A stretch of DNA of 64,000 nt, taken from a virus. Lineage: Duplodnaviria; Heunggongvirae; Uroviricota; Caudoviricetes. Each line of letters begins with the position of its first letter. The first letter of the stretch is position 1. Position numbers and translations under genes: made by a program. The notes under the pieces were generated by a model. It ran no database searches. It had not been told where the DNA came from and saw only the letters and a list, made by a program, of their open reading frames with translations. The DNA is taken from IMG/VR virus record IMGVR_UViG_2563366911_000001; one strand, 5' to 3'. Shown piece after piece: positions 1 through 43,420 of the stretch.

Positions 1-216
1 AATCATCTATGATGTGGCTGTTTCCACGCTTTATAAGAAGTTTCCGGCGTCGTCATTTCAATCCTAAACCTTGGTTTAAGAGAACTCGGTACCAGCGGTG
101 AAAAGATCCCCCTGTTGAGCACGGCTAACACATGGAGTGCGCGCCAGATTTTCAACGGAGGGATCACCGGGGCACTGACAGGGAACGCCGACACCGCGAC
201 GAAATTGAAAACAGCA
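1..216. repeat. Left copy of the inverted repeat flanking the invertible tail-fibre segment; the window begins inside it
   Basis: nt 1-130 are the reverse complement of 4002-4131 with one mismatch (96 vs 4036); similarity decays by about 215/3917. Confidence 0.85.
59..84. other. cix/hix-family crossover site (left)
   Basis: caatcctaaacc-tt-ggtttaagagaa, a 12-2-12 imperfect palindrome resembling Hin/Gin/Cin recombination sites. Confidence 0.6.
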
Positions 217-1398
217 CGCACTATTGGCGGTGTGGCATTTGATGGTACTGCGAATATTAATTTACCTGGTGTTAACGTTGCGGGTAATCAGAATACATCC
301 GGTAACGCGGCTACAGCGACCAAGTTGCAGACAGCATGTACTATCAACGGCGTCTCGTTTGATGGTTCTAAAAATATTGAGCTAACGGCGGAAGATTTAA
401 ATCTACAGGAATTTATTAATAAAGCAAATAATGCCGTTCAGCGTTCAGGCGATATCTTGTCCGGCGGACTTACTTTTGAAAACGACTCAATCCTTGCCTG
501 GATTCGAAATACTGACTGGGCAAAGATTGGATTTAAAAATGATGCCGACAGCGACACAGATTCATACATGTGGTTTGAAACAGGCGACAACGGCAATGAA
601 TATTTCAAATGGAGAAGCAAACAAAGCACCACAACAAAAGACCTGATGAATCTTAAATGGGATGCTTTGTCTGTTCTTGTTAAAGCCCTTTTCAGCAGTG
701 AAGTAAAAATATCGACAGTCAATGCACTGAGGATATTTAATTCATCTTTTGGTGCCATTTTTCGCCGTTCTGAAGAATGCCTGCATATCATCCCTACACG
801 AGAGAATGAGGGGGAAAATGGTGATATAGGGCCACTACGTCCCTTTACGCTTAATCTCAGAACTGGCCGCATAACTATGGGGCATGGTCTGGATGTTACA
901 GGAGATATATTTACAAACCGTTTTTTAATTAACAGCAGTACAGGCATGTGGATTAATATGCGTGACCAGAACGTTATTATGGGACGTAATGCGGTATCCA
1001 CTGATGGTGCTCAGGCCTTGCTCCGTCAGGACCATGCCGACCGCAAATTTATGATTGGTGGTCTGGGGAATAAGCAATTTGGCATCTACATGATTAATAA
1101 TTCAAGGACGGCCAATGGCACCGATGGTCAGGCGTACATGGATAATAACGGTAACTGGCTTTGTGGCTCGCAAGTTATTCCTAGCAACTATGGCAATTTT
1201 GATTCCAGATATGTGAGAGATGTTCGCCTGGGTACGCGAGTTGTTCAATTGATGGCGCGTGGTGGTCGTTATGAAAAAGCCGGACACGCAATTACCGGAT
1301 TAAGAATCATTGGTGAAGTAGATGGCGATGATGAAGCCATCTTCAGGCCAATACAAAAATACATCAATGGCACATGGTATAACGTCGCACAGGTGTAA
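115..1398 (+). CDS. Tail fibre variable C-terminal part (Sv-like), TTG start as drawn
   Basis: Fibre repeat motifs NADTATKL...FDG; shares its first 34 aa with the ORF at 2494-4017. Confidence 0.8.
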   Translation: MSTANTWSARQIFNGGITGALTGNADTATKLKTARTIGGVAFDGTANINLPGVNVAGNQNTSGNAATATKLQTACTINGVSFDGSKNIELTAEDLNLQEFINKANNAVQRSGDILSGGLTFENDSILAWIRNTDWAKIGFKNDADSDTDSYMWFETGDNGNEYFKWRSKQSTTTKDLMNLKWDALSVLVKALFSSEVKISTVNALRIFNSSFGAIFRRSEECLHIIPTRENEGENGDIGPLRPFTLNLRTGRITMGHGLDVTGDIFTNRFLINSSTGMWINMRDQNVIMGRNAVSTDGAQALLRQDHADRKFMIGGLGNKQFGIYMINNSRTANGTDGQAYMDNNGNWLCGSQVIPSNYGNFDSRYVRDVRLGTRVVQLMARGGRYEKAGHAITGLRIIGEVDGDDEAIFRPIQKYINGTWYNVAQV

Positions 1399-1929
1399 AT
1401 GATGCAGCATTTAAAAAATATTAAGTCTGGAAATCCTAAAACGAAAGAACAATATCAGCTAACAAAGAATTTTGATGTTATCTGGTTATGGTCCGAAGAC
1501 GATAAAAACTGGTATGAGGAAGTGAAAAACTTTCAGCCAGACACAATAAAGATTGTTTACGATGCAAATAATATTATTGTCGCCATCACTAAAGATGCCT
1601 CCACGCTTAACCCTGAAGGTTTTAGCGTCGTTGAGGTTCCTGATATTACAGCCAACCGCCGCGCTGATGATTCAGGAAAGTGGATGTTTAAGGATGGAGC
1701 TGTAGTTAAACGGATTTATACGGCAGACGAACAGCAACAACAGGCCGAATCACAAAAGGCCGCATTGCTTTCCGAAGCTGAATCAGTCATCCAGCCGCTG
1801 GAACGCGCTGTCAGGCTGAATATGGCAACAGACGAGGAACGCACACGACTGGAAGCATGGGAACGCTACAGTGTTCTGGTCAGCCGTGTGGATACGGCAA
1901 ATCCTGAATGGCCACAAAAGCCTGAATAA
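1399..1929 (+). CDS. U: Tail fibre assembly chaperone (U/Tfa family)
   Basis: 176 aa, Tfa-like, immediately downstream of the fibre ORF; paralog of 1958-2491. Confidence 0.8.
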
Positions 1930-1934
1930 AAATT

Positions 1935-1954
1935 AAGGCCCGCTATCGGGCCTT
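1935..1954. terminator. Hairpin between the convergent U and U' genes
   Basis: aaggcccg-ctat-cgggcctt; weak T tract. Confidence 0.4.
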
Positions 1955-1957
1955 GTC

Positions 1958-2491
1958 TCATTCAGGTTGTTCGGGAAATGTTACTGGCAGGCTGGAGGTG
2001 TCTGTAGATTCGACTTTCTGCGCATAGAGCATCCACTCAGTTAATTTTTGTTTATTCTCGTCGGAAATGATGCCCAGCCGTAGCTGTGAGTCCCATAGCT
2101 GGGTTTTATCCCTGACAAGTTGCAACAGGCTTTGTTTTTCATTCTCTGCCTGCTGCCTTTGTTCCTCCTCGGTATAAGTTCGCTTTATCACTACGCCATC
2201 TTTGAACATCCATTTACCCGAAATATCAGCCCGGCGATTTGCTGTAATATCAGGAACCTCAACGACGCTTGCGCCTTCTGGATTAATTGCTGAAACATCC
2301 TTTTCAATACAAATAATAACGTCGTTGTGGTCATAGACCATTTTCAACGTATCAGGCTGAAAGTTCTTTTGTTCCTCATACCAGTTTTTCCCATCCTCTG
2401 TATAAAGCCATTTGATGTTAAATTGTTTCGTTAGCTGGTATTGCTCTTTTGTTTTAGGGTTGCCAGCAGTAATGTTTTTTAAGTGCATCAT
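1958..2491 (-). CDS. Tail fibre assembly chaperone (U')
   Basis: 177 aa paralog of U. Confidence 0.8.
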   Translation of the reverse strand: MMHLKNITAGNPKTKEQYQLTKQFNIKWLYTEDGKNWYEEQKNFQPDTLKMVYDHNDVIICIEKDVSAINPEGASVVEVPDITANRRADISGKWMFKDGVVIKRTYTEEEQRQQAENEKQSLLQLVRDKTQLWDSQLRLGIISDENKQKLTEWMLYAQKVESTDTSSLPVTFPEQPE

Positions 2492-2493
2492 CG

Positions 2494-4017
2494 TTAAATA
2501 CTCCCCGCGTTATACCACGTCCCATTAATGCAATACTGAATTGGCCTTGCCTGAGTTGTATCAATTAATTCATCACGGTTTCCGTTAACTGAACCTGTAA
2601 CGACATAACCTGACCTGTCAGACCAGCCGGGACCATTCCATGTCTGAACAGATGACAGACCGCCCAGGCGAATACCTGTAATAAACCTTGAGTTACATTC
2701 TGCCTGCGTATATGCACCAACATCCCCCGCAGAGGGTTTGCGGGTTGTGGTGTAAAACTCTGACCAGTTAGCTTCAAAGCCATAACCATCACGCGCTGAA
2801 CGATAAAAGATACCGCCGTTCTTATAATTCACGCGGAACTGTACAGCAGGGCAACTCCCCGCATTCATATTGAAGTGGAGGATTAATGTCGATGCGCCAC
2901 TGATATCTGCATCATAAACGCCGCTATTCCAGTTCCAGCCAACAGCTTTATCATTTGCAACCCTGCTTCCTGTTTGCCCTAAAGCAAATGCAGGCTGCTG
3001 GTTTTTCGTGTTGTAGTCTCTTCGCCAGCCAGGAGCATAAGCATCACCATGATTAATATAAGTGAATTGAGCGTTAGTAATTCCGCCACCGCTGGACGTG
3101 CTCGGCGTAGTAACGCGTATGGTCATTGCGCCGCGAGTGCCAATAACTTCCACCACAGCACCTGCAAGACAAATATTTCCGCAACCTGTATCTGTAATGA
3201 CCTTATTATTTGCATAAGCCCATGAGCCTTTGCACATCCAGTAAGGATGGTTAAATGCTCCCTGACTCTCCAGCCACGAAATAAATTGCGCGGTTGTCCA
3301 GACCTGACTATCGCCACCAATATTCAGCCATGCGCTATATGCGCGGCAGGCACCAATATTTTTGGTGAAGGTATCTTTTCCCGGAATATCTGCGCCGTTC
3401 TGGTTTTTCTGTAATGCTCCTGCGGCTAATTCTACAGTTTGCTCAAGATTTAAATCTGCCGCCGTTAGCTCAATATTTTTAGAACCGTCAAACGAGACAC
3501 CGTTGATAGTACACGCCGTCTGCAATTTGGTCGCTGTAGCCGCATTACCAGAGGTGTCCTGATTCCCTTTGGTATTAACGCCGGGAACGGAATCTTTTGA
3601 CGTATAGATCTGTGCCCATTCGGACCATGCCGCAGCAGTGCTATCTCTTTTGGATCGAATGAAAGCTGGTGCATGAGCGCCATTTGTGCCACTCCAGCCA
3701 ATGAGCAACTCGCCTTCACCAGTGGATGCAGCTCCCTTCAGGTGAAGTACATTCCCGTAAGTCGTCGGATAACCATTGTTGTATGCCTCATACATCTGCA
3801 ATCCAGTAGCAGCACCTTGCGTTGTACCGGTAAGCGCAGTAACGCGTCCTCTAGACGTAATTGTTGGTATCGAAATGTTCGTAGAACCATCGAATCTGAC
3901 GCCATTAATGTTTATGGCTGTTTTTAATTTCGTCGCGGTGTCGGCGTTCCCTGTCAGCGCCCCGGTGATCCCGCCGTTAAAAGTCTGGCGTGCACTCCAT
4001 GTGTTAGCCGTGCTCAA
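2494..4017 (-). CDS. Alternative tail fibre variable part (Sv'-like), TTG start as drawn
   Basis: 507 aa; same N-terminal 34 aa as Sv, divergent receptor-binding end. Confidence 0.8.
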   Translation of the reverse strand: MSTANTWSARQTFNGGITGALTGNADTATKLKTAININGVRFDGSTNISIPTITSRGRVTALTGTTQGAATGLQMYEAYNNGYPTTYGNVLHLKGAASTGEGELLIGWSGTNGAHAPAFIRSKRDSTAAAWSEWAQIYTSKDSVPGVNTKGNQDTSGNAATATKLQTACTINGVSFDGSKNIELTAADLNLEQTVELAAGALQKNQNGADIPGKDTFTKNIGACRAYSAWLNIGGDSQVWTTAQFISWLESQGAFNHPYWMCKGSWAYANNKVITDTGCGNICLAGAVVEVIGTRGAMTIRVTTPSTSSGGGITNAQFTYINHGDAYAPGWRRDYNTKNQQPAFALGQTGSRVANDKAVGWNWNSGVYDADISGASTLILHFNMNAGSCPAVQFRVNYKNGGIFYRSARDGYGFEANWSEFYTTTRKPSAGDVGAYTQAECNSRFITGIRLGGLSSVQTWNGPGWSDRSGYVVTGSVNGNRDELIDTTQARPIQYCINGTWYNAGSI

Positions 4018-4131
4018 CAGGGGGATCTTTTCACCACTGGTACCGAGTTCTCTTAAACCAAGGTTTAGGATTGAAATGACGACGCCGGAAACTTCTTATA
4101 AAGCGTGGAAACAGCCACATCATAGATGATT
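3916..4131. repeat. Right copy of the inverted repeat (cin 3' end plus first ~34 codons of Sv')
   Basis: Reverse complement of window 1-216. Confidence 0.85.
4048..4073. other. cix/hix-family crossover site (right); contains the cin stop codon
   Basis: Reverse complement of 59-84; cin TAA lies at 4065-4067. Confidence 0.6.
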
Positions 4132-4625
4132 GCAACCTGCTTACGGGGGATGCCATTCTCCAGCAATCGCCGCATTTGCTGCCATGTTTCTTCTTGGTAT
4201 TTAGGCCGACGCCCACCTATACGACCTTCTGCGCGAGCTGCATCAAGTCCAGCGCGTGTACGTTCAACGATAAGCTCACGTTCCATTTCTGCCAGCGCTC
4301 CCATTACGTGAAAGAAAAAGCGCCCCATTGGTGTACTGGTGTCGATAGAGTCAGTGAGACTCCGGAAATTAATTCCTCTGTCACGCAGCTCTTCCACCAG
4401 CACAACCAAGTGACGCATGCTGCGCCCAAGACGATCTAACTTCCATACGACCAGGGTGTCACCTCTGGAAAGCATACGCAAAACCTTTTTTAGCCCAGGG
4501 CGTTCAGTCTGTTTGCCGCTCGCCTTATCCTCAAAAATTAGCTCACATCCTGCGCTTTCAAGGGCATTTCGTTGCAAAGCAGTGTTTTGTTCATTTGTTG
4601 ATACGCGTACATAGCCGATCAGCAT
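4065..4625 (-). CDS. cin: Serine DNA invertase (Cin/Gin/Hin/Pin family)
   Basis: 186 aa; GYVRVST catalytic-serine N-terminus, resolvase fold, C-terminal HTH. Confidence 0.9.
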   Translation of the reverse strand: MLIGYVRVSTNEQNTALQRNALESAGCELIFEDKASGKQTERPGLKKVLRMLSRGDTLVVWKLDRLGRSMRHLVVLVEELRDRGINFRSLTDSIDTSTPMGRFFFHVMGALAEMERELIVERTRAGLDAARAEGRIGGRRPKYQEETWQQMRRLLENGIPRKQVAIIYDVAVSTLYKKFPASSFQS

Positions 4626-4746
4626 GATTTTTACTCTAATGCGTTGTTCTTATGAGTCTGCGAATTTTAAAGAACAAAGCGTTATGCACAGAAATAACAA
4701 TCTGAATAGGTTCCTGCTTGATTTTTGTTAGATCCGGGAGGAGCTT

Positions 4747-5031
4747 ATGCAGATTTTGATTTTTTTAATGTCCATTATTAGTGGAACCTATTTATTTCTT
4801 ACTGGAGTTAGGCGTGGAGCTTATAAGCCATGTTTTTTACATTGGCTTGAAGCATGGCTGCTTGCCATAAAAGGTGGTTTTGTTGGTTTTTGTCTTGCAG
4901 AAGTTCAGTGGGGAAACTCATTTTTGGATGTGGTTGCTTTTTTGATATGTAGTTGGAATAGCCATTTTGTATTAAGAATAACCAAAATATGGGTTTTTCA
5001 CTTGATTTACGAATGTATTGGCAAATTATGA
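4747..5031 (+). CDS. Small hydrophobic membrane protein
   Basis: 94 aa, several TM-like stretches, strong SD gggaggag upstream, AT-rich. Confidence 0.45.
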   Translation: MQILIFLMSIISGTYLFLTGVRRGAYKPCFLHWLEAWLLAIKGGFVGFCLAEVQWGNSFLDVVAFLICSWNSHFVLRITKIWVFHLIYECIGKL

Positions 5032-5091
5032 ACAACCAGATGAGAAGTTACTTTGCATACCATTACCTCCTGACAACGTAGGAGGGAACTT

Positions 5092-5421
5092 GTGCTTGAC
5101 ACACAGGAATTAGCTCCAGTTGCTATTGCGCTCCTGCTTTCAGTAATTGGTGGGATAGGCACGTTCCTGATGGATGTCCGAGACGGTCGCCAGTCTGGCA
5201 ATTTGTTGGGATTGGTTACGGAGATCTTTGTTGCAGTGACAGCTGGCGCGGTGGCGTACCTATTGGGGCAACACGAGGGCTGGGAGTTATCAATTACGTA
5301 CTTAATGGTAACGATAGCCAGCAATAACGGTCATGAGGTGATTTCAGGGATGAAACGAGTGAATATCGATAGCATTCTGAATGTTCTTACAAGTTTGGTG
5401 AAAAAGGGAGGCGGGAAATGA
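5092..5421 (+). CDS. lydA: Holin (LydA-like)
   Basis: 109 aa, TM segments, GTG start with SD ggaggg; position upstream of darA operon. Confidence 0.6.
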   Translation: MLDTQELAPVAIALLLSVIGGIGTFLMDVRDGRQSGNLLGLVTEIFVAVTAGAVAYLLGQHEGWELSITYLMVTIASNNGHEVISGMKRVNIDSILNVLTSLVKKGGGK

Positions 5422-5861
5422 TTGGCTGGGGTGTATGCGTTCTTGCGTTAGCCTTAGCCGATCGCTATTTGCTAAAACGCAAGGACATCACGCATTTAGA
5501 ACTTGGTGATGTGGAAATTAAACCGGGTTTCATCCGGGTGCCGTTCAAATACCGGTCTAAATTCCCGTTTTTGCGCGGCGCAACGGTCAGATATTGGATC
5601 CGCGATGTTCAGAAGCCAACGACAGTGATTGAAGGCGAACAACGTTGTCTGACGTCGGCTGAACAGGGCGAAAACAGTGAATGGTTGTACATACCCACTG
5701 AATATATGGGTAAAGGAGAACGGCTGTGGCATTTCAACGTCATGGTTACGCATGGCGACTCGTTCATTAACCCGTTGTATCGGATTTTCCCTGTTACTCA
5801 GCAAATCCGCAGAAGTTACGTAATAAATCTCGCACAGGATGTGTCAGATGACGAAAAATAA
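5418..5861 (+). CDS. lydB: Antiholin (LydB-like)
   Basis: 147 aa, coupled to lydA by ATGA overlap. Confidence 0.5.
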   Translation: MIGWGVCVLALALADRYLLKRKDITHLELGDVEIKPGFIRVPFKYRSKFPFLRGATVRYWIRDVQKPTTVIEGEQRCLTSAEQGENSEWLYIPTEYMGKGERLWHFNVMVTHGDSFINPLYRIFPVTQQIRRSYVINLAQDVSDDEK

Positions 5862-6450
5862 GTATGCAACGGTCGATTTTGACCAGGTTAATGAAAAGGG
5901 GCTGAAATCCCTTATCGCGGCGATCAATAAAACCGGTGTTACGGTAATTGAGGTTGACTCCAGCAACCGCGCAACAACGAAAGATGGCGTTAAAGTTAAA
6001 ACCGCAAAGCTGGTTCTTAACGACGGACAAATTCTTGCCATACAGGTAAACGATACTGGCGATATATCGTCTGTGAGGCTGAATGGAAAAGCTATTCCTA
6101 ACGCTCAGTCGCCGGATATCAAGACGCTTGGTACCGTCATGGGGCAAGCGGCCCGCAAAAACTCCGCAAAATTCCAGAAATCACTGATCGCCAAAGCGAA
6201 ACGTGTTGCCAATCCGGTAGACAAGAAACCGGCAGTAAAATCCAACTTTCAGCGCCTGCAAGAGGCAAAACAGCGGAATGCTCAGGTGGTTGCCGCTTAT
6301 AAATCAGCGCAGAACTCGGTGTCTTTCAATCAACAGCAGATCACTGATTTGCGGGCGAAGCTGGATAAGGAGACAGGCCGACTCAATAACGAAAAGGCCC
6401 GAAATGGCGAACTCAAACGCCGTCTTAAGCAACTGAAAGCAGGAAATTAA
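5839..6450 (+). CDS. hdf: Hdf (homolog of DarA fragment)
   Basis: Shares the KNSAKFQ motif with DarA; basic coiled-coil C-terminus. Confidence 0.55.
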   Translation: MCQMTKNKYATVDFDQVNEKGLKSLIAAINKTGVTVIEVDSSNRATTKDGVKVKTAKLVLNDGQILAIQVNDTGDISSVRLNGKAIPNAQSPDIKTLGTVMGQAARKNSAKFQKSLIAKAKRVANPVDKKPAVKSNFQRLQEAKQRNAQVVAAYKSAQNSVSFNQQQITDLRAKLDKETGRLNNEKARNGELKRRLKQLKAGN

Positions 6451-6451
6451 C

Positions 6452-8371
6452 ATGGAACAGTTCAATATCAATAAAGGGGTGACGATCAAACCTGGGCTTG
6501 ACGTGCTTCCCCCGCCAGTGACTGATGATGAATATCGCGCATTAATGGCCGGTGAGGACCGCTATCTGATGACGGAATCCAACACCCTGGAGGAAATCGA
6601 GGCTACGTTCTTCTATGACACGCCGATCCACTGGTGTGCTACGGATTTACTGGAGGCGATTAGTTCTACTCGTTTGCAGCTACACCGGACCATGCAGGCA
6701 TTTGTCCGGGCATTGAACCAGAAGCTGAATGGTACCGGAATCTCTGCGGGGAGTGATAAAACGGGGGATGTGGCCCAGAACGGTGCACGCGCGATCGGCG
6801 GGGCTGAAATTGGCCGGGCACGTAACGTTAACGGGCTGCCGGTCCTGCCAGCCATTATTCCGCTCAGTGATGGTCAGACTATCAGCATTCTGTTTCATAG
6901 CCCGACAGCGGAAAACCGGATCACCAATAGCGATACGCTGATTGCTTTCCAGTTCTTACTGAATAAAAAAGACGTTACTCATACCGTTGCTCCGATGAGT
7001 GGACGTGATATGACGCTGGCGCAGGTCACCATGAAACTTGCCAACCTTGCAGAGAAAAACTCGGCAAAATTCCAGCGTGCGCAGAAGAAGAAAAAAGCCC
7101 TGGTTGATGAAATAACCCAACTACAGGCTGACAGTGACCAGAAAGAGGATGCCATGAGCGACCTCGCGGATCAGGTGGCAGCGGTAGAAGGGCAGAAGGT
7201 AGATCTGGAGCAGAAAATTAACGCTGTTGCATCGGAAGCGGATTCTCTTTATGAAGAGAATGAGCGTTTGCAGACGGAGATTGATCAGCTCAATCGAACT
7301 GGTGGGCGCGAAACCATTGCTCCTGCGGGGATGACTGGTGGACACTCTCGCGCGATGACGGATCGCCTTGCAAGTATCAAAAATCGTATGCATATGAACG
7401 GGGAAGTGACGCTCAGTAATGGTGCATCAATGAAGCAATTCATTGAGGACGGTGAAGGGTATATCCAGTTAACCGATTCGGATGGCAGCGTGTACATGAT
7501 CAAGGCTAAATCCATACAGGGTGTGGACATGGCAGATGCGATCGGCAAGCTGTTTAAAGCCTATAAAGCGGGTAATGTATCGGAATACCTGGTCCAACCA
7601 GAAGAACATAAACCGGAAAACGTCGAACCTGAACCAGCGGAGGATACCGGTAGCTCTTCGCCTGAACCAGAAATCTCTGTAGGTGCATATCGATATGCCC
7701 TGCAAATGCGTCCGGCGGCCCCTGGCGCAATACCTGAAGGTAACAAAGCAATTCTGCCGCGCCCTGATGAAGGTGACCCGTATTATGAATATGCACGCTA
7801 CGGCATTGCTACTTACGATACCCCGCTTTCTGATCAGCAAATGAGTGAGTACGACCTGAAGTTATTGCCTCGCGAGGATTCTTTCGACTTCTTGGCGAAG
7901 ACACTTACTAATGGTCCGTTTGGCAAATATGCACAAAAAGCTCTGGAGCTGGCCACCAGCTCACCAGACGAGTTCCGCGTAATGCTGAAAACTCAGTTTC
8001 AAAAAACTTTCCCCAATATTGCGTATCCGGGGGGCGCTGGCACCGAGAAAATGGTGCAGAGCATGATCAATGCATTGCAGGCCGAAGTCGGTGAGATTAC
8101 TCAGCCAGAACCTGCCCCGGCACAGCCTGATGAAACGGTTAGCGAAGCAGATGCAGAGGCTAATAAAGCCATTGAATATCTCAATAACGTGATGGATATG
8201 CAAAGCACTGACATGGCGGAGATCCGTAACGCCCGGGGTAATGTCCGGGAAGCGATTGCAGCCCTTCAGGCTGCCGGGCGTTTTGAGGAAAACGAAGAGC
8301 TGGTTAATGGCGCTGCTCGCCACCTGGCTGATCTGCTGGTAGCAATCCAGAAAGCGGGGGTAGCGGCATGA
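6452..8371 (+). CDS. darA: DarA antirestriction / capsid-associated protein
   Basis: 639 aa; position and size match P1 DarA (from memory). Confidence 0.6.
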   Translation: MEQFNINKGVTIKPGLDVLPPPVTDDEYRALMAGEDRYLMTESNTLEEIEATFFYDTPIHWCATDLLEAISSTRLQLHRTMQAFVRALNQKLNGTGISAGSDKTGDVAQNGARAIGGAEIGRARNVNGLPVLPAIIPLSDGQTISILFHSPTAENRITNSDTLIAFQFLLNKKDVTHTVAPMSGRDMTLAQVTMKLANLAEKNSAKFQRAQKKKKALVDEITQLQADSDQKEDAMSDLADQVAAVEGQKVDLEQKINAVASEADSLYEENERLQTEIDQLNRTGGRETIAPAGMTGGHSRAMTDRLASIKNRMHMNGEVTLSNGASMKQFIEDGEGYIQLTDSDGSVYMIKAKSIQGVDMADAIGKLFKAYKAGNVSEYLVQPEEHKPENVEPEPAEDTGSSSPEPEISVGAYRYALQMRPAAPGAIPEGNKAILPRPDEGDPYYEYARYGIATYDTPLSDQQMSEYDLKLLPREDSFDFLAKTLTNGPFGKYAQKALELATSSPDEFRVMLKTQFQKTFPNIAYPGGAGTEKMVQSMINALQAEVGEITQPEPAPAQPDETVSEADAEANKAIEYLNNVMDMQSTDMAEIRNARGNVREAIAALQAAGRFEENEELVNGAARHLADLLVAIQKAGVAA

Positions 8372-8733
8372 CACTATCAGCTATTGAGTTAATGGATCTC
8401 AGCGATAAGTTGGATGCTCTGATGTCCAAAGCGGCTACCGCGAGTGGCATGGAGTTGCTGGATATCAGCGATGAAATTGACCAGATCATGCAACAGATGG
8501 GGTACGGTGTGTCCGGCGGCAGTAGTGGCGAGGAAAAACAACCTTCGGTACATGATGGTGTGCCAAAACTGGTTGCTGATTTCCTGGCTGATAAATTCGT
8601 CGATCAGAGCACCGATGCATTTATCGGTACCTTGCAGGATTTGAGTCAATATGTTGGCACATACATCGACCTGGACCAGGTTAAACAGCACACGGCGGCA
8701 TGGATAGCCGCCAACATTAAAGAGGCAGCATAA
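8368..8733 (+). CDS. ddrA: DdrA-like small protein
   Basis: 121 aa, overlapping start; positional. Confidence 0.5.
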   Translation: MTLSAIELMDLSDKLDALMSKAATASGMELLDISDEIDQIMQQMGYGVSGGSSGEEKQPSVHDGVPKLVADFLADKFVDQSTDAFIGTLQDLSQYVGTYIDLDQVKQHTAAWIAANIKEAA

Positions 8734-8745
8734 GGCGTAACAGGG

Positions 8746-11733
8746 ATGAGCTTAAGCGATCAGGTGGTAATGGCCACCAGCATAGAAACGCTGATCGAGC
8801 TGCTAAAGAACCTGCCCGATTATGGGCGGGTTTCGTATGTGGTGACAGCGAAGGGAGACGAGGTAAAAACAGCGTTTGATATCGTCGATGCCTCAGCTCT
8901 TTTGGTATCCAATACTCTGGATGGGAAAATTAATCCTGACTATCCCCAGGAACTTCAGCCGCGCGACCGGACCCGCGCATCCAGCCTTCTTCAGGTTAAC
9001 CAGATATCCAAAGATTTGCGGCCTGCTCAGCTTACTGATTCCGGTTTATCCAGCCATGGTGCGCCGATAATTGGTGAGGACAATGCCGTTGAGTCAGGTA
9101 ATGGACGGACCATGGGGATCATCAAAGCCTATCAGGACGGCAATGCGGATCGGTATCGTGAGTACCTGATTGATCATGCGACCGAATTCGGCATACGACC
9201 TGAAAAGGTTGAATCAATGACGGCTCCGGTACTGGTGCGCCGCCGGTTAACCAAGGTTGACCGCGTTCAGTTTGCCAAGGACTCAAATATTTCTGATCTT
9301 CAGGAAATGGCAGCCAGTGAAAAGGCTTTTGTTGATGCCGACAGCATAACACCGGCGATGATGGCGCTTTTTAACCCGTCAGAAAGCGGAGATCTGCTTA
9401 GCCGCAGTAATGACGCGTTTATTCGCGGATTTATGACGCAAGTTGGTGCCACACAGGCGGCTGGCCTTGTAACGGAAGATGGGCGACCAACGCGGCAACT
9501 TGTTGACCGTATACAAAACGCGATCTTTGCCAAGGCATATAAGGATGCGCGCCTGGTAAGGATGGTTGCAGAAGAACCTGATCCGGATATGCGTAATGTT
9601 CTGACGGCGCTTAATGCGGCAGCCAATGATTTTGTCCAGATGCAGGCTTTATCAGGAGAAGCGCACAAGCAGGCTGTGACAACTATTGTTGATGGCATTG
9701 AGACAGCGGATAGCCTCGATAAAAAGGCGCTGGCGGCATTGAAAGATGCGGTAGACCTGGTAAGGCAATCGAAGGAGTCAGGCCAGCATATTACCGATGT
9801 TATTGCTCAGGGGGATATGTTCAGCGAAATGGCCCCGGAAGTGAAAGCACTCGCGTTGTTCATCGTCGCGAATAACCGTAGCGCGAAGCGTATGGCCACC
9901 GCCTTTAAGTTGATGGCTCAACGTATCAATGATGAGTTACAGCACCAGGGCCAGGCGCTGGGGGATATGTTTGGCGGCGGCGATGTGTCGTTACAGGATA
10001 TCCTTCGCCAGGTGTCTCAGGAACTGGAAAACGAAGGCATGCAAGGGATATCCGGCGGTCTTTTCGAGTCCGTTTCCGGCGGTAGTTACAACGGTGTTGC
10101 TCCGTATACCAGTTTGCTATTACATCGGACATCCGGCATCAAAGACATTATTCATCTGATCAGGCTGCTTTCCCGCACAGATCCCCAGGATGAACAGCTT
10201 GTACAAGTGCTTGCGCATTTTGTTCGAATGCCTGTTGCCGACGTGAAAAAATGGTGCCGATTATTCGGTATCAGCAATTCGTTACTTCGCGGCTTGTTAA
10301 ATCACGCATCCTCCCTTGGGCGCGATGGCTTTGACGAGATAGCGCAGGCGATAAAAAACGGAGATATGCCACCAGCTATTGACTGGTTTTCCATTCGCCC
10401 AACCAGGGTGAAAGCATTCCTTAGCGCGGCGCATTCGGCATCACCATTGGCAGAAATGGTTCAGAGGTTGTCGCTCATATTCACAGACCATACCGCGTTG
10501 GGTGATCTGACTCTGGACGAGATGAAAGAAGCCTCCATTCAGTGGGCCGATCAACAAAATGAGGTTAACTCAGACTTCTTGCCAGCATTCAGGAAGGCCG
10601 TTAGTAAAGCGGATGATGCCCGTGGAATTCTGAAGGCATTTAAGGCATTGCAAAGTCGTGTTAATAAACATGTCGGTGATATCGATGGGGTAACGGCGGA
10701 AGGCCGGGATATCCTTAAAGAGCACGGCATAACACCAGAGTTTATTGATGAGATCAGGACGGATATGCAGCGTGAGGTCGTATCGTCCCTGCAAATTGTA
10801 GCCAGAGCGTTGGCGGATGCTAATCCGAAGAGTGCGGCCATTGTTAACCGGGTTATTGGTGATATTGAAGCATCGGAGGGCATGGGGGCGCTGAAACTCT
10901 TCCTTTCGCGAGCGTTTAATCCTAACGGCAATATTCTCCCTGGCATTATTGGTGAGGCTAAAAAGTATGTCAGTGAAGAAGAACTTGAGCAGCTTGACCA
11001 ACTACTTAAGCGATTCTCATATAACCCGCAGACACGCTGGCAAATGAATCAGCGAAGTATGGGTTCGGTCCACGAGAAAGTGTTATCTGCCATGAACAGT
11101 GCGATCGCAAACTCATCCGTATCTGAAGAAAAAGCTCTTGAGTGGGCCGACTCTTTTATCACGGAAGAAGTGGAAGAAGCTCGCGCTGGACAGAATGGTG
11201 GGATAGACCTGCGCAAGGAACTTGCTGATATTTATCGCCTGACCGGCGGGAAAATATCGACCTTATCAAAGGTAGTTCACCACCAGGGAAGGGCATATGC
11301 AAATCTAAATGGTGTTGTTGCTGTCAATTTGAACGATGAAAATGCAAGTGCACTGTGGCACGAGCTGGGTCATCATCTTGAGTACAGTAACCCTGGTTTG
11401 TTAGAGAAAGCCCGATCATTCCTGAAGGCCAATGTTGAAGGGGATAAGCCATCTTTCGTCAATATCGGTGGGCGTGGCAAGCCTGAATGGTGCTTCAGAT
11501 CTCGATTGAGTAATATTTATATGGCGAAGGTATACCCGCCAGCCTCAGTAAGTAACACCGGGAAAATTCGGCAGAAATCACCGACTATTTCCAAAACGTC
11601 AGCAACGGAAGTATTCTCTATGGCTCTTCAGTTGTATCATGACAAAGAGGCCGCTGCCGCATCACTGATGAATGGTGACGGATTGCTGGAACTGTTATTA
11701 GGTGTGGCAAAGGAGCTAAATAATGCAGATTAA
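8746..11733 (+). CDS. ddrB: DdrB-like large virion protein
   Basis: 995 aa; positional. Confidence 0.5.
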   Translation: MSLSDQVVMATSIETLIELLKNLPDYGRVSYVVTAKGDEVKTAFDIVDASALLVSNTLDGKINPDYPQELQPRDRTRASSLLQVNQISKDLRPAQLTDSGLSSHGAPIIGEDNAVESGNGRTMGIIKAYQDGNADRYREYLIDHATEFGIRPEKVESMTAPVLVRRRLTKVDRVQFAKDSNISDLQEMAASEKAFVDADSITPAMMALFNPSESGDLLSRSNDAFIRGFMTQVGATQAAGLVTEDGRPTRQLVDRIQNAIFAKAYKDARLVRMVAEEPDPDMRNVLTALNAAANDFVQMQALSGEAHKQAVTTIVDGIETADSLDKKALAALKDAVDLVRQSKESGQHITDVIAQGDMFSEMAPEVKALALFIVANNRSAKRMATAFKLMAQRINDELQHQGQALGDMFGGGDVSLQDILRQVSQELENEGMQGISGGLFESVSGGSYNGVAPYTSLLLHRTSGIKDIIHLIRLLSRTDPQDEQLVQVLAHFVRMPVADVKKWCRLFGISNSLLRGLLNHASSLGRDGFDEIAQAIKNGDMPPAIDWFSIRPTRVKAFLSAAHSASPLAEMVQRLSLIFTDHTALGDLTLDEMKEASIQWADQQNEVNSDFLPAFRKAVSKADDARGILKAFKALQSRVNKHVGDIDGVTAEGRDILKEHGITPEFIDEIRTDMQREVVSSLQIVARALADANPKSAAIVNRVIGDIEASEGMGALKLFLSRAFNPNGNILPGIIGEAKKYVSEEELEQLDQLLKRFSYNPQTRWQMNQRSMGSVHEKVLSAMNSAIANSSVSEEKALEWADSFITEEVEEARAGQNGGIDLRKELADIYRLTGGKISTLSKVVHHQGRAYANLNGVVAVNLNDENASALWHELGHHLEYSNPGLLEKARSFLKANVEGDKPSFVNIGGRGKPEWCFRSRLSNIYMAKVYPPASVSNTGKIRQKSPTISKTSATEVFSMALQLYHDKEAAAASLMNGDGLLELLLGVAKELNNAD

Positions 11734-25600: not shown

Positions 25601-26209
25601 TTATCGTGGTGCCGATGATGCGATAGCCTGTATGATGTTATCAATATCGTTATCGTTCAGCATGAATATAGGTACACCATTAGAGTTTGCATTTTTTTCA
25701 GTGCTCATCAAACAAAGCCCCTCATACATGCCGCGAGTTTTTTTGAAATTGGCGACTGATGGAGTGGTGTAATTTCCTTTAAAGTGCATTCCGGCTGATT
25801 CATAAAAAGGAACCAAATCAGACTGGCAAATCAAAGCGACCTCATTTGGAAATGCAAGTATTTCTGCCAGTATATTACTTCCAAGTCCATTACCACGATA
25901 TTGCTCATATACATATATTTTATGACAGTACAACGGAAAATTTCCCGATGGATGTCCGAAGATTAAGGCGTATCCGAACAAGTTTTCTTCATTAGTAAAG
26001 CCCATAATGCGCAAATGACCGGCTCGGTAACACTCTTCAAAAACGTTAATTATGTAGCTTCTCGCTGCTTTCAGCTCCTCTTCTGTCGGGAACATCATCA
26101 ACCCCATAAGCGATGGAGTATAGGCCAGATCCTGAAGAATCCCATTAGCTTCATTTTCGAAAATTAGCGGTAAGTGCGGTACAATTTCATTTGCCGAGGT
26201 ATTAGACAT
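25601..26209 (-). CDS. GNAT-family N-acetyltransferase
   Basis: 202 aa; acetyl-CoA motif YRGNGLGSNIL; AT-rich gene with its own AT-rich promoter region. Confidence 0.7.
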   Translation of the reverse strand: MSNTSANEIVPHLPLIFENEANGILQDLAYTPSLMGLMMFPTEEELKAARSYIINVFEECYRAGHLRIMGFTNEENLFGYALIFGHPSGNFPLYCHKIYVYEQYRGNGLGSNILAEILAFPNEVALICQSDLVPFYESAGMHFKGNYTTPSVANFKKTRGMYEGLCLMSTEKNANSNGVPIFMLNDNDIDNIIQAIASSAPR

Positions 26210-41470: not shown

Positions 41471-42183
41471 TGATTCACCTCCTGCGGCGGTTCTGGTAGC
41501 GGCATCCAGTGTGACGGTTTCCACGACGCACCAGGAATTATCCACCCATCATTAGCGTCAGGATGCCCGGGGATGTAAGTAGCCCATTTCATTCGCCAGT
41601 CACCTTTCCTGTCAAACTCCACGGCAACAAGAACGGCTGTTTTGGTATTCGGCATTCGCTCACTACAGCTTATCCAACCATCCGGAGTTGCCGGAGAGTT
41701 GCCCGATAGCTGGTTCAACTTGTAAGTTTGGCTTACAGGTTCGGCACCATGAAGCATGGCGTCGCTCCGCTCTATGCCATCCAGCGCGATTCGCAGTGCC
41801 TGAATTGTGGTAGAGCTATCGTTTGGGGCTATTCCATATCGCTCGAATACAGCTAAATGGTTGCGCATAATCTCAGGCGTAAGCTCTTTGTAAGCATAAG
41901 CAAGAGGCTCTGATGCATTATCCGGCACAACCGACGCAGGCGCGGCAGCATAAACAGGAATAACGTCCGCTTGCTCTTTATTGCTTTCATCCGTTAAAGA
42001 CCAGAATAATTTCCCGGCCGGATGTTTGAAAATATAAGCAACTGGATCTGCTTCCAGCGATGCCAGCGCAATTCGTGCCAGTTCTTCCGCTTCTTCTGCT
42101 GGCAGTACAACGTTGCTACCAGGTCCGTATGTTTCGCGCCACTGCTTGATTGTCAGTAGTCGCTCTTTGGTAATAGTGATCAT
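41467..42183 (-). CDS. DUF551-type prophage protein
   Basis: C-terminal ...SHWMPLPEPP; N-terminus paralogous to 43058-43420. Confidence 0.55.
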   Translation of the reverse strand: MITITKERLLTIKQWRETYGPGSNVVLPAEEAEELARIALASLEADPVAYIFKHPAGKLFWSLTDESNKEQADVIPVYAAAPASVVPDNASEPLAYAYKELTPEIMRNHLAVFERYGIAPNDSSTTIQALRIALDGIERSDAMLHGAEPVSQTYKLNQLSGNSPATPDGWISCSERMPNTKTAVLVAVEFDRKGDWRMKWATYIPGHPDANDGWIIPGASWKPSHWMPLPEPPQEVNQ

Positions 42184-43058: not shown

Positions 43059-43420
43059 TACTCACCTCCCTTACCCTGAAGCATGGCAGCGCGGCAGGCG
43101 TTCCAGCCATCAACATAATCAAACGTATTGCTATCGTCTGGCTCGATTTCATCCGGCACTACCGGCTCTGGTTGGATAGTGACGTTGGCAAAGGCAGCAC
43201 GCAAACCGGCCTTAATTTCCTCTACTTCATCAGCGCCTAGCGATGAATCTGACAATGCGTGATGGAATGCGTAAGCCATGTCGTCGTTTACTGCAACCGG
43301 TTCGGCTTCCAGTGATGCCAGCGCAATTCGTGCCAGTTCCATTTGTTCGCCACGGGTAAGCCCGTTATCAAGCGGATTTTTAATGAATAATTCGATACGT
43401 TCTTTGGTAATAGTGGTCAT
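43058..43420 (-). CDS. Small acidic prophage protein
   Basis: 120 aa, paralog of the N-terminus of 41467-42183. Confidence 0.5.
   Translation of the reverse strand: MTTITKERIELFIKNPLDNGLTRGEQMELARIALASLEAEPVAVNDDMAYAFHHALSDSSLGADEVEEIKAGLRAAFANVTIQPEPVVPDEIEPDDSNTFDYVDGWNACRAAMLQGKGGE

Follow-up and report, generated by a model that had tools for sequence, protein, structure and literature searches.

The cin end on both sides of a P7-type tail-fibre switch is very probably an assembly overhang at a draft scaffold start

How can a tail-fibre switch carry the end of its invertase gene on both sides of the invertible segment, with the constant part of its fibre gene nowhere in sight? The question is raised by the viral record IMGVR_UViG_2563366911_000001 (Caudoviricetes), analysed here as a stretch of 64,000 nucleotides (nt), the window, which opens with a long inverted repeat (arms 1-258 and 3874-4131, 91 % complementary). 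Its sequence identifies the locus as the cin/C-segment tail-fibre switch of a P7-type (P1-like) phage-plasmid of Escherichia coli, in which a fibre gene, S, is made of a constant part (Sc) and one of two variable ends (Sv or Sv'). An earlier note on this DNA had described the oddity and suspected an assembly break point. We conclude, with a probability of about 0.93, that the left flank is an assembly overhang of K-1 nt at the start of a draft scaffold, which derives from the other inversion isomer and is not so arranged in the molecule. Just as probably, the anomaly in the deposited sequence is an assembly artefact within a P7-type Cin switch, the molecule itself being a circle with one cin and one Sc.

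The Cin/C-segment switch is an already-known system, on record since the early 1980s, and the copy in the window is essentially that of P7. It has two opposed sets of a fibre end and its chaperone; the plus strand encodes Sv'-U', the minus strand U-Sv. The features on which the argument turns are the following:

1-95, plus strand: flank read here as misplaced, made up of the cin 3' end (flank-specific bases 1-60, 65 and 67), cix and 14 further bases
62-81, plus strand: left cix, central dinucleotide 71-72, a 20/20 match to the annotated cixL of P7
72-1398, plus strand: Sv', variable C-terminal fibre part, from the list of open reading frames (ORFs); 427 amino acids (aa) from TTG 115; Pfam Gp34_trimer; P7 annotation
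2494-4060, minus strand: Sv, variable C-terminal fibre part; 507 aa from TTG 4017; weak gp37_C match
3874-4131, minus strand: right-hand arm of the long inverted repeat, pairing with 1-258; its part within the segment is the N-terminal stretch common to Sv and Sv'
4051-4070, minus strand: cixL, central dinucleotide 4060-4061, holding the cin stop codon at 4065-4067; a 20/20 match to P7 cixL
4065-4625, minus strand: cin, serine DNA invertase of 186 aa; Pfam Resolvase PF00239 (E = 1.5e-50) and HTH_7 PF02796 (E = 2.5e-18)

Over its first 95 nt the window matches the reverse complement of 4037-4131 without exception; at nt 96 it has C where position 4036 has T on the minus strand. The exact copy ends one base short of the first difference between Sv and Sv', which is nt 96. 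Nucleotides 2-67 translate to IIYDVAVSTLYKKFPASSFQS*, the last 21 codons and the stop of cin; the 19 cin codons that had been read from nt 1-58 are correct as the part lying outside the 26-bp site then assumed, and fall short of the full extent. When compared with contig ends that are flanked by Sc, positions 1-60, 65 and 67 are specific to this flank. The path from 1 to 162 joins these cin-specific bases to bases that are specific to Sv' (96, 141, 149, 153 and 159), a combination that occurs naturally where the other isomer has its junction, in P7 and in contig CAXKSD010000012.1.

The same flank accounts for the appearance of the fibre genes. From nt 1 the fibre frame reads NHL*CGCFHAL*EVSGVVISILNLGLRELGTSGEKIPLL..., and the fibre frame of the right arm is closed likewise. 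The first start-like codons of the two fibre ORFs are TTG at 115 and 4017; these look like starts because the misplaced flank closes the frame upstream. Both the TTG codons and the TAA at 34-36 had been pointed out before and are confirmed, with the addition of a TGA at 10-12. Genuine TTG starts for the variable parts were considered and rejected on account of the Sc continuations in relatives and of the P7 record, which annotates parts of S, not genes. Neither Sc nor R nor gene 16 is found anywhere in the 64-kb window, in agreement with the remark that no in-frame constant fibre part is visible.

The position of the flank in its source record is telling. The window starts at base 1 of the E. 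coli draft scaffold KE136968.1 (GCA_000408225.1; 95,678 nt), bases 1-11398 of which are 100 % identical to the window, with the 427-aa gene at 115-1398 in both; an exact-protein look-up of the 427-aa ORF found it called on two contigs only, one of which is KE136968.1. No sequence therefore exists to the left of the repeat. The repeat does run off the window edge, as had been stated, but this edge is the first base of the source record. The ALLPATHS-LG unipath graph is built with K = 96 (Ribeiro et al. 2012, PMC3483556), and the vertices of the graph are therefore 95-mers. The exact copy has this very size, 95 nt or K-1. Furthermore, KE136968.1 (95,678 nt) exceeds its near-identical relative CAXKSD010000012.1 (95,583 nt) by exactly 95 nt, as the overhang model predicts.

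The proposed course of events is as follows. The real molecule would be a circle of about 95.6 kb with a single cin and a single Sc, and a sequenced culture with both inversion isomers would have yielded reads across four junctions (cin-Sv', cin-Sv, Sc-Sv' and Sc-Sv). With K set to 96, the graph path leading out of cin would branch at nt 96, the first difference between Sv and Sv'. Written out as a linearised circle, the scaffold would open on window 1-95, the 95-mer vertex that belongs to the cin-flanked branch, cross the segment to reach the real cin, follow the rest of the plasmid and close on the corresponding 95-mer of the branch flanked by Sc; the final 95 nt of KE136968.1 (95,584-95,678) are accordingly predicted to read CAGACTGACTTAACGTCAGTCGGTCGCGATATTCTGGCCAAAACAAGCGTTCTTGCTGTTATCCAATACCTTGGTTTAAGAGAACTCGGTACCAG. 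We infer with high confidence that bases 1-60 are real sequence of the other, C(+), isomer put at the wrong end. Because the scaffold ends are chimeric, we are equally confident that the culture used for sequencing contained both inversion isomers, in other words that Cin was active. In the assembled sequence (as distinct from reads), both the cin-Sv' and the cin-Sv junctions occur within KE136968.1 itself.

If this is correct, Sc should be found at the other end of the scaffold. If the scaffold stops where nt 95 has its counterpart in the Sc-flanked sequence, a partial S of 461 aa is predicted, and this we then looked up. The two closest relatives have the same nucleotide sequence over the first 1,385 nt of Sc, and the sequence of the predicted fragment could therefore be written out. 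This fragment, ending in ...AVIQYLGLRELGT, exists exactly (protein P0151, accessions of which include EOV42240.1 and ELJ15360.1), and versions of 462, 470, 471 and 481 aa are absent from the protein collection. The first gene of the window is EOV42130.1; counting from there to EOV42240.1 gives 111 proteins, a fitting number for a P1-like scaffold of 95.7 kb, and ELJ15360.1 belongs to the ELJ series that was used for the proteins of E. coli KTE163. In the assembly collection, 415 index blocks contain the 461-aa fragment, and the contigs listed for it (10/10) end at ...GGTACCAG, the equivalent of nt 94-95. The break one base before the first Sv/Sv' difference is systematic across assemblers. Sc is very probably located at the far end of KE136968.1, where its sequence would be joined in frame on circularisation, and we are highly confident that the circularised scaffold would give a 901-aa Sc-Sv' fibre in its main orientation. 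EOV42240.1 appears to lie at the end of KE136968.1 itself. Of the alternatives entertained earlier, neither another invertase nor a genuine lack of Sc finds support. What the earlier note had named as the finding that would overturn its own picture, an artefactual flank, is in effect what a K-1 overhang at the scaffold start amounts to.

Three further look-ups were negative. No EOV accession was found for nine other window proteins among the matches listed (four per protein); KE136968.1 is not among the places listed for the Band_7 protein and Cre, which are indexed in more than 12,000 blocks; nor is it among those listed for the 461-aa fragment (3-kb and 10-kb flanks), where similar places are collapsed. 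As a separate observation, most of the best 120 Sc homologues in a large protein database carry the label 'partial'.

The relatives agree on what lies beyond the left site. A comparison with 678 plasmid, 2,189 E. coli and 96 phage records gave a list of best-ranked matches; in this list, all alignments in the orientation of the window start at nt 61 or 68, and cin sequence on both sides of the segment was seen in no record. Directly beyond the left site the relatives place sit-pmgA-bplA-16-R-Sc. In the closest complete plasmid, CP057623.1 (99.0 % identical), Sc, cix and Sv' form a 901-aa S that crosses the left site into Sv' (Sc...AVIQY/LGLRELGTSGEKIPLL/STANTW...). CAXKSD010000012.1, which is 99.93-99.95 % identical over 14 kb without a gap, has the order cin-cix-Sv'-U'-U-Sv-cix-Sc, with one cin and an in-frame 975-aa S through the site. 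Hence the constant part that was expected to read across the site, as in switches of the Mu/P1 type, is present in these relatives, fused in frame from nt 61 (901- and 975-aa S). Both orientations of the segment occur among the deposited near-identical plasmids, one in CP057623.1 and the other in CAXKSD010000012.1 and P7, which is indirect evidence of inversion. An exact 120-mer scan of IMG/VR returned four natural cin-cix-segment loci, one of them in IMGVR_UViG_2690316068_000001, and a scan of the GTDB representative genomes had no hit.

Other assemblies are broken at the same switch. Contig ANYJ01000097.1 of E. coli KTE163 is an orphan segment contig, the bases 1-3968 of which equal window 68-4035 (100 %). 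It comes from another isolate of the same collection and starts directly after the last flank-specific base, nt 67, and as a second Broad-style assembly it fits the overhang picture. Its right end lies one base before an Sv-specific base. IMGVR_UViG_2690316068_000001, a phage-plasmid record of 95,207 nt that is 99.3 % identical, ends 194 nt into the cin-cix-Sv' junction (8706-8899) and is another assembly broken at the switch.

Side by side with this evidence stand points that weigh against the overhang explanation. GCA_000408225.1 appears to have been made with ALLPATHS-LG, to judge by its KE/EOV accessions and by the K-1 match. These accessions, and the strain names (KTE) that the sister assemblies bear, look Broad-style; a literature search found no paper that names GCA_000408225 or KE136968 or ties the KTE genomes to ALLPATHS. 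The link between EOV42240.1 and KE136968.1 is drawn from the accession series and from length arithmetic, and the 95-nt excess assumes that the remaining 31.7 kb hold no compensating indels. Lastly, the right end of ANYJ01000097.1 is at 4035 and not at the symmetric position 4064, for which a simple unipath model does not fully account.

These points have to be set against what the alternatives can offer. The deposited sequence does show the cin 3' end on both sides, and it could be taken at face value: a second, partial or complete, inverted cin would then lie beyond the segment, for instance after Cin inversion between the copies of a plasmid dimer, and the segment would be cut off from Sc. 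A dimer could in principle invert between the cixL of one copy and the cixR of the other. We hold a real flank of this kind to be most improbable, as its left side amounts to just 95 nt at the very start of a record, is K-1 in size and ends at the branch base of the graph. The scaffold is the size of a monomer, 95 nt over a near-identical circle with one cin; a fragment of Sc that ends at the same branch base is found in the same accession series; and none of the listed matches among plasmid, E. coli and phage records has the arrangement. We give a similarly small chance to the deposited arrangement being real in a minority of molecules, as an inverted dimer or rearranged plasmid that Cin produced by acting between two plasmid copies. 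One C segment would then have cin on both sides and another would have Sc on both sides, and the invertase would be recombining, in vivo, sites that are about 90 kb apart or on different copies.

Library chimeras can yield inverted duplications at contig ends, which makes a generic end artefact (a chimeric read or a hairpin library), with a single orientation in culture, conceivable. A junction placed exactly at cix is not what such an accident would give, and the path 1-162 reproduces the junction that the other isomer has by nature, as in P7 and CAXKSD010000012.1. The Sc-side contigs of many assemblies stop one base before nt 96, moreover, which needs a real C/T branch in the reads. We regard this origin as even less credible than a real second cin, and the same low rating applies to a true loss or displacement of Sc, which would leave a defective fibre operon with neither variable part expressible. 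A window of 64 kb without Sc, R and gene 16 and the closed frame upstream of both variable parts are what such a loss would look like, and degenerate cin/C-segment loci are known in some P1-like plasmids (PMC6906374). The window, however, spans just 64 kb out of 95.7 kb, EOV42240.1 is an exact record of the 461-aa Sc fragment, the relatives have sit-pmgA-bplA-16-R-Sc directly beyond the left site, and the first 1,385 nt of Sc are identical in the two closest of them. An overhang contributed by the other isomer thus remains the explanation that we prefer.

The switch itself is complete in the window except for Sc, and the remaining parts of the locus are these:

283-411 and 3439-3567: further block shared by Sv and Sv' (inverted repeat, 88 %)
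1399-1929, plus strand: U', tail-fibre assembly chaperone of Sv', 176 aa; Pfam Caudo_TAP (E = 8e-38); P7 annotation
1935-1954: G+C-rich, terminator-like hairpin between the convergent U' and U (8-pair stem with 6 G-C pairs; a T run follows next on the minus strand)
1958-2491, minus strand: U, tail-fibre assembly chaperone of Sv, 177 aa; Pfam Caudo_TAP (E = 2e-36); P7 annotation
4540-4607, minus strand: recombinational enhancer ('putative' in the P7 record) in the 5' part of cin, a sequence match only, 68/68 identical to the P7 feature
4630-4646, minus strand: Op(lydC), operator of the C1 repressor, lying between cin and lydC; a 17/17 match to P7

The cin gene is identical to P7 cin in 560/561 nt and in 186/186 aa. 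With the Cin protein, cixL and the enhancer all identical to the P7 annotation, the original description of the locus as a Cin/cix invertible fibre segment stands. The 20-bp cixL sequence of P7 occurs exactly twice in the 64 kb, the two occurrences being inverted to each other (chance expectation 0); both are imperfect dyads around the central dinucleotide and bound the segment. A Min-like (p15B) multi-site shufflon is ruled out by there being 2 sites only in the 64 kb with up to 3 mismatches allowed; a partial match to the cix core at 2682-2695 reaches merely 12/14 of the core.

A stop codon, TAA, lies inside each site (65-67 and 4065-4067, within the 20-bp cix at 62-81 and 4051-4070), and the earlier observation that the crossover sites contain the cin stop is accurate. 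As the P7 record annotates cixL as overlapping the final 6 nt of cin, and as cin in P1 likewise ends in this site, the overlap is a known property of P1 and P7 and no oddity of this DNA. Hiestand-Nauer and Iida are said to have described in 1983, for P1, cixL as the end of cin and two base differences between cixL and cixR, both inside this TAA. The outer half of cix reads CCTAAACC on the cin side versus CCAATACC on the Sc side, with two differences, both within the TAA (TAA versus AAT). The outer half of the left site as deposited is of the cin-flank (cixL) type, TCCTAAACC. In the real molecule, flanked by Sc, the left site would read TCCAATACC, the Sc-side sequence being taken from CP057623.1, CAXKSD010000012.1 and P7.

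Recombinases of the Hin/Gin/Cin family act by Fis- and enhancer-dependent synapsis, cleavage at the central dinucleotides and a 180-degree rotation of the strands. By analogy, Cin, a serine invertase, would bind the inverted cix sites at 62-81 and 4051-4070 and, with the help of the enhancer at 4540-4607 inside cin, would cut at the central dinucleotides 71-72 and 4060-4061. The 3,989-bp segment would then flip and place either Sv'-U' or Sv-U downstream of Sc, and the fibre set next to Sc would be expressed from the late promoter upstream of R.

The Sv' of the window is itself of some interest. Its 427-aa allele differs from the common 433-aa allele (P0137, 204 contigs) in a clustered patch at window 900-1140, with a length change of 6 aa (DIFTNRFLINSSTGMWINMRDQNVIMGRNAVSTDG... 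in the window versus DITTNAWVYANRFAINSGSTSWIDMRNQNVIFGRNAVSTSS... in the 433-aa allele), and no contigs other than KE136968.1, CAXKSD010000012.1 and that of KTE163 were seen to carry exactly the 427-aa allele. The patch looks like a mosaic exchange in the receptor-binding part.

The remainder of the window is P1/P7 backbone, with lydC/A/B, darA, ddrB, darB, cre, c1 and tRNA genes for Thr, Asn and Met (CAT). A variable slot near darB holds a 202-aa GNAT-type acetyltransferase (25601-26209, minus strand). In relatives the slot is occupied by SIR2, RelA/SpoT, a type III restriction-modification pair or DUF2971, and in P1 by res/mod. Because the occupants differ among relatives and are res/mod in P1, this slot is a hot spot for defence and cargo genes. 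A 47-nt direct repeat at 42038-42084 and 43293-43339 has copies that are 91 % identical and 1.25 kb apart. The tRNA genes are:

60899-60974, minus strand: tRNA Met (anticodon CAT)
62974-63049, minus strand: tRNA Thr (TGT)
63052-63127, minus strand: tRNA Asn (GTT)

These three correspond to the three of P1, in which the one with the CAT anticodon is taken to be an Ile tRNA.

The biological weight of the anomaly is small, given that the switch is known and that the anomaly appears to be an artefact, and its consequences are for annotation and assembly. The TTG-started fibre ORFs and the missing Sc in KE136968.1 should not be taken for a defective or unusual fibre operon, and circularisation of this scaffold would need the first 60 bases and the 35-base overlap to be dropped. 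Overhangs and contig ends that fall exactly at the first Sv/Sv' difference are also a cheap sign, obtained from drafts without reads, of segment flipping in culture.

Among named systems P7 (AF503408.1, NC_050152.1) is the closest, with the same set of Sv', U', U and Sv at 98.0 % identity over window 1-4071. As in the window, the cin stop codon of P7 lies within cixL, and Sv is fused to Sc in P7 as in the 975-aa S of CAXKSD010000012.1. The two differ in that the P7 segment is 18 nt longer and in that U is split into Ua and Ub in the P7 record, whereas U in the window is intact (177 aa). The P7 record represents the C(+) isomer; the main path of KE136968.1 is the opposite isomer and, on our reading, has a 95-nt overhang of the C(+) junction. 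P1 (NC_005856.1) shares the architecture and mechanism, with Sc running through cixR into Sv and cin ending in cixL, but is only about 90 % identical in nucleotide sequence to this region of the window. The variable parts and U/U' are also related to those of the G segment of Mu, with its invertase Gin, of D108 and of SfMu (91-93 % identity over window 448-3417). Mu, like the window's switch, combines a constant Sc with an invertible Sv-U/Sv'-U' segment, yet its G segment differs in the invertase (Gin), the sites (gix) and the phage backbone, and similarity at the 91-93 % level does not extend to the outermost 450 nt of either arm. On the assembly side, the nearest likeness is to the K-1 end overhangs that unipaths leave at invertible segments, which have the same position at a record end, the same K-1 size, the same end at a branch base and a partner contig end. 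Unlike a plain K-1 overhang, the one proposed here carries the flank of the other isomer, and it is for this reason that the linearised circle seems to have a cin end on both sides of its segment.

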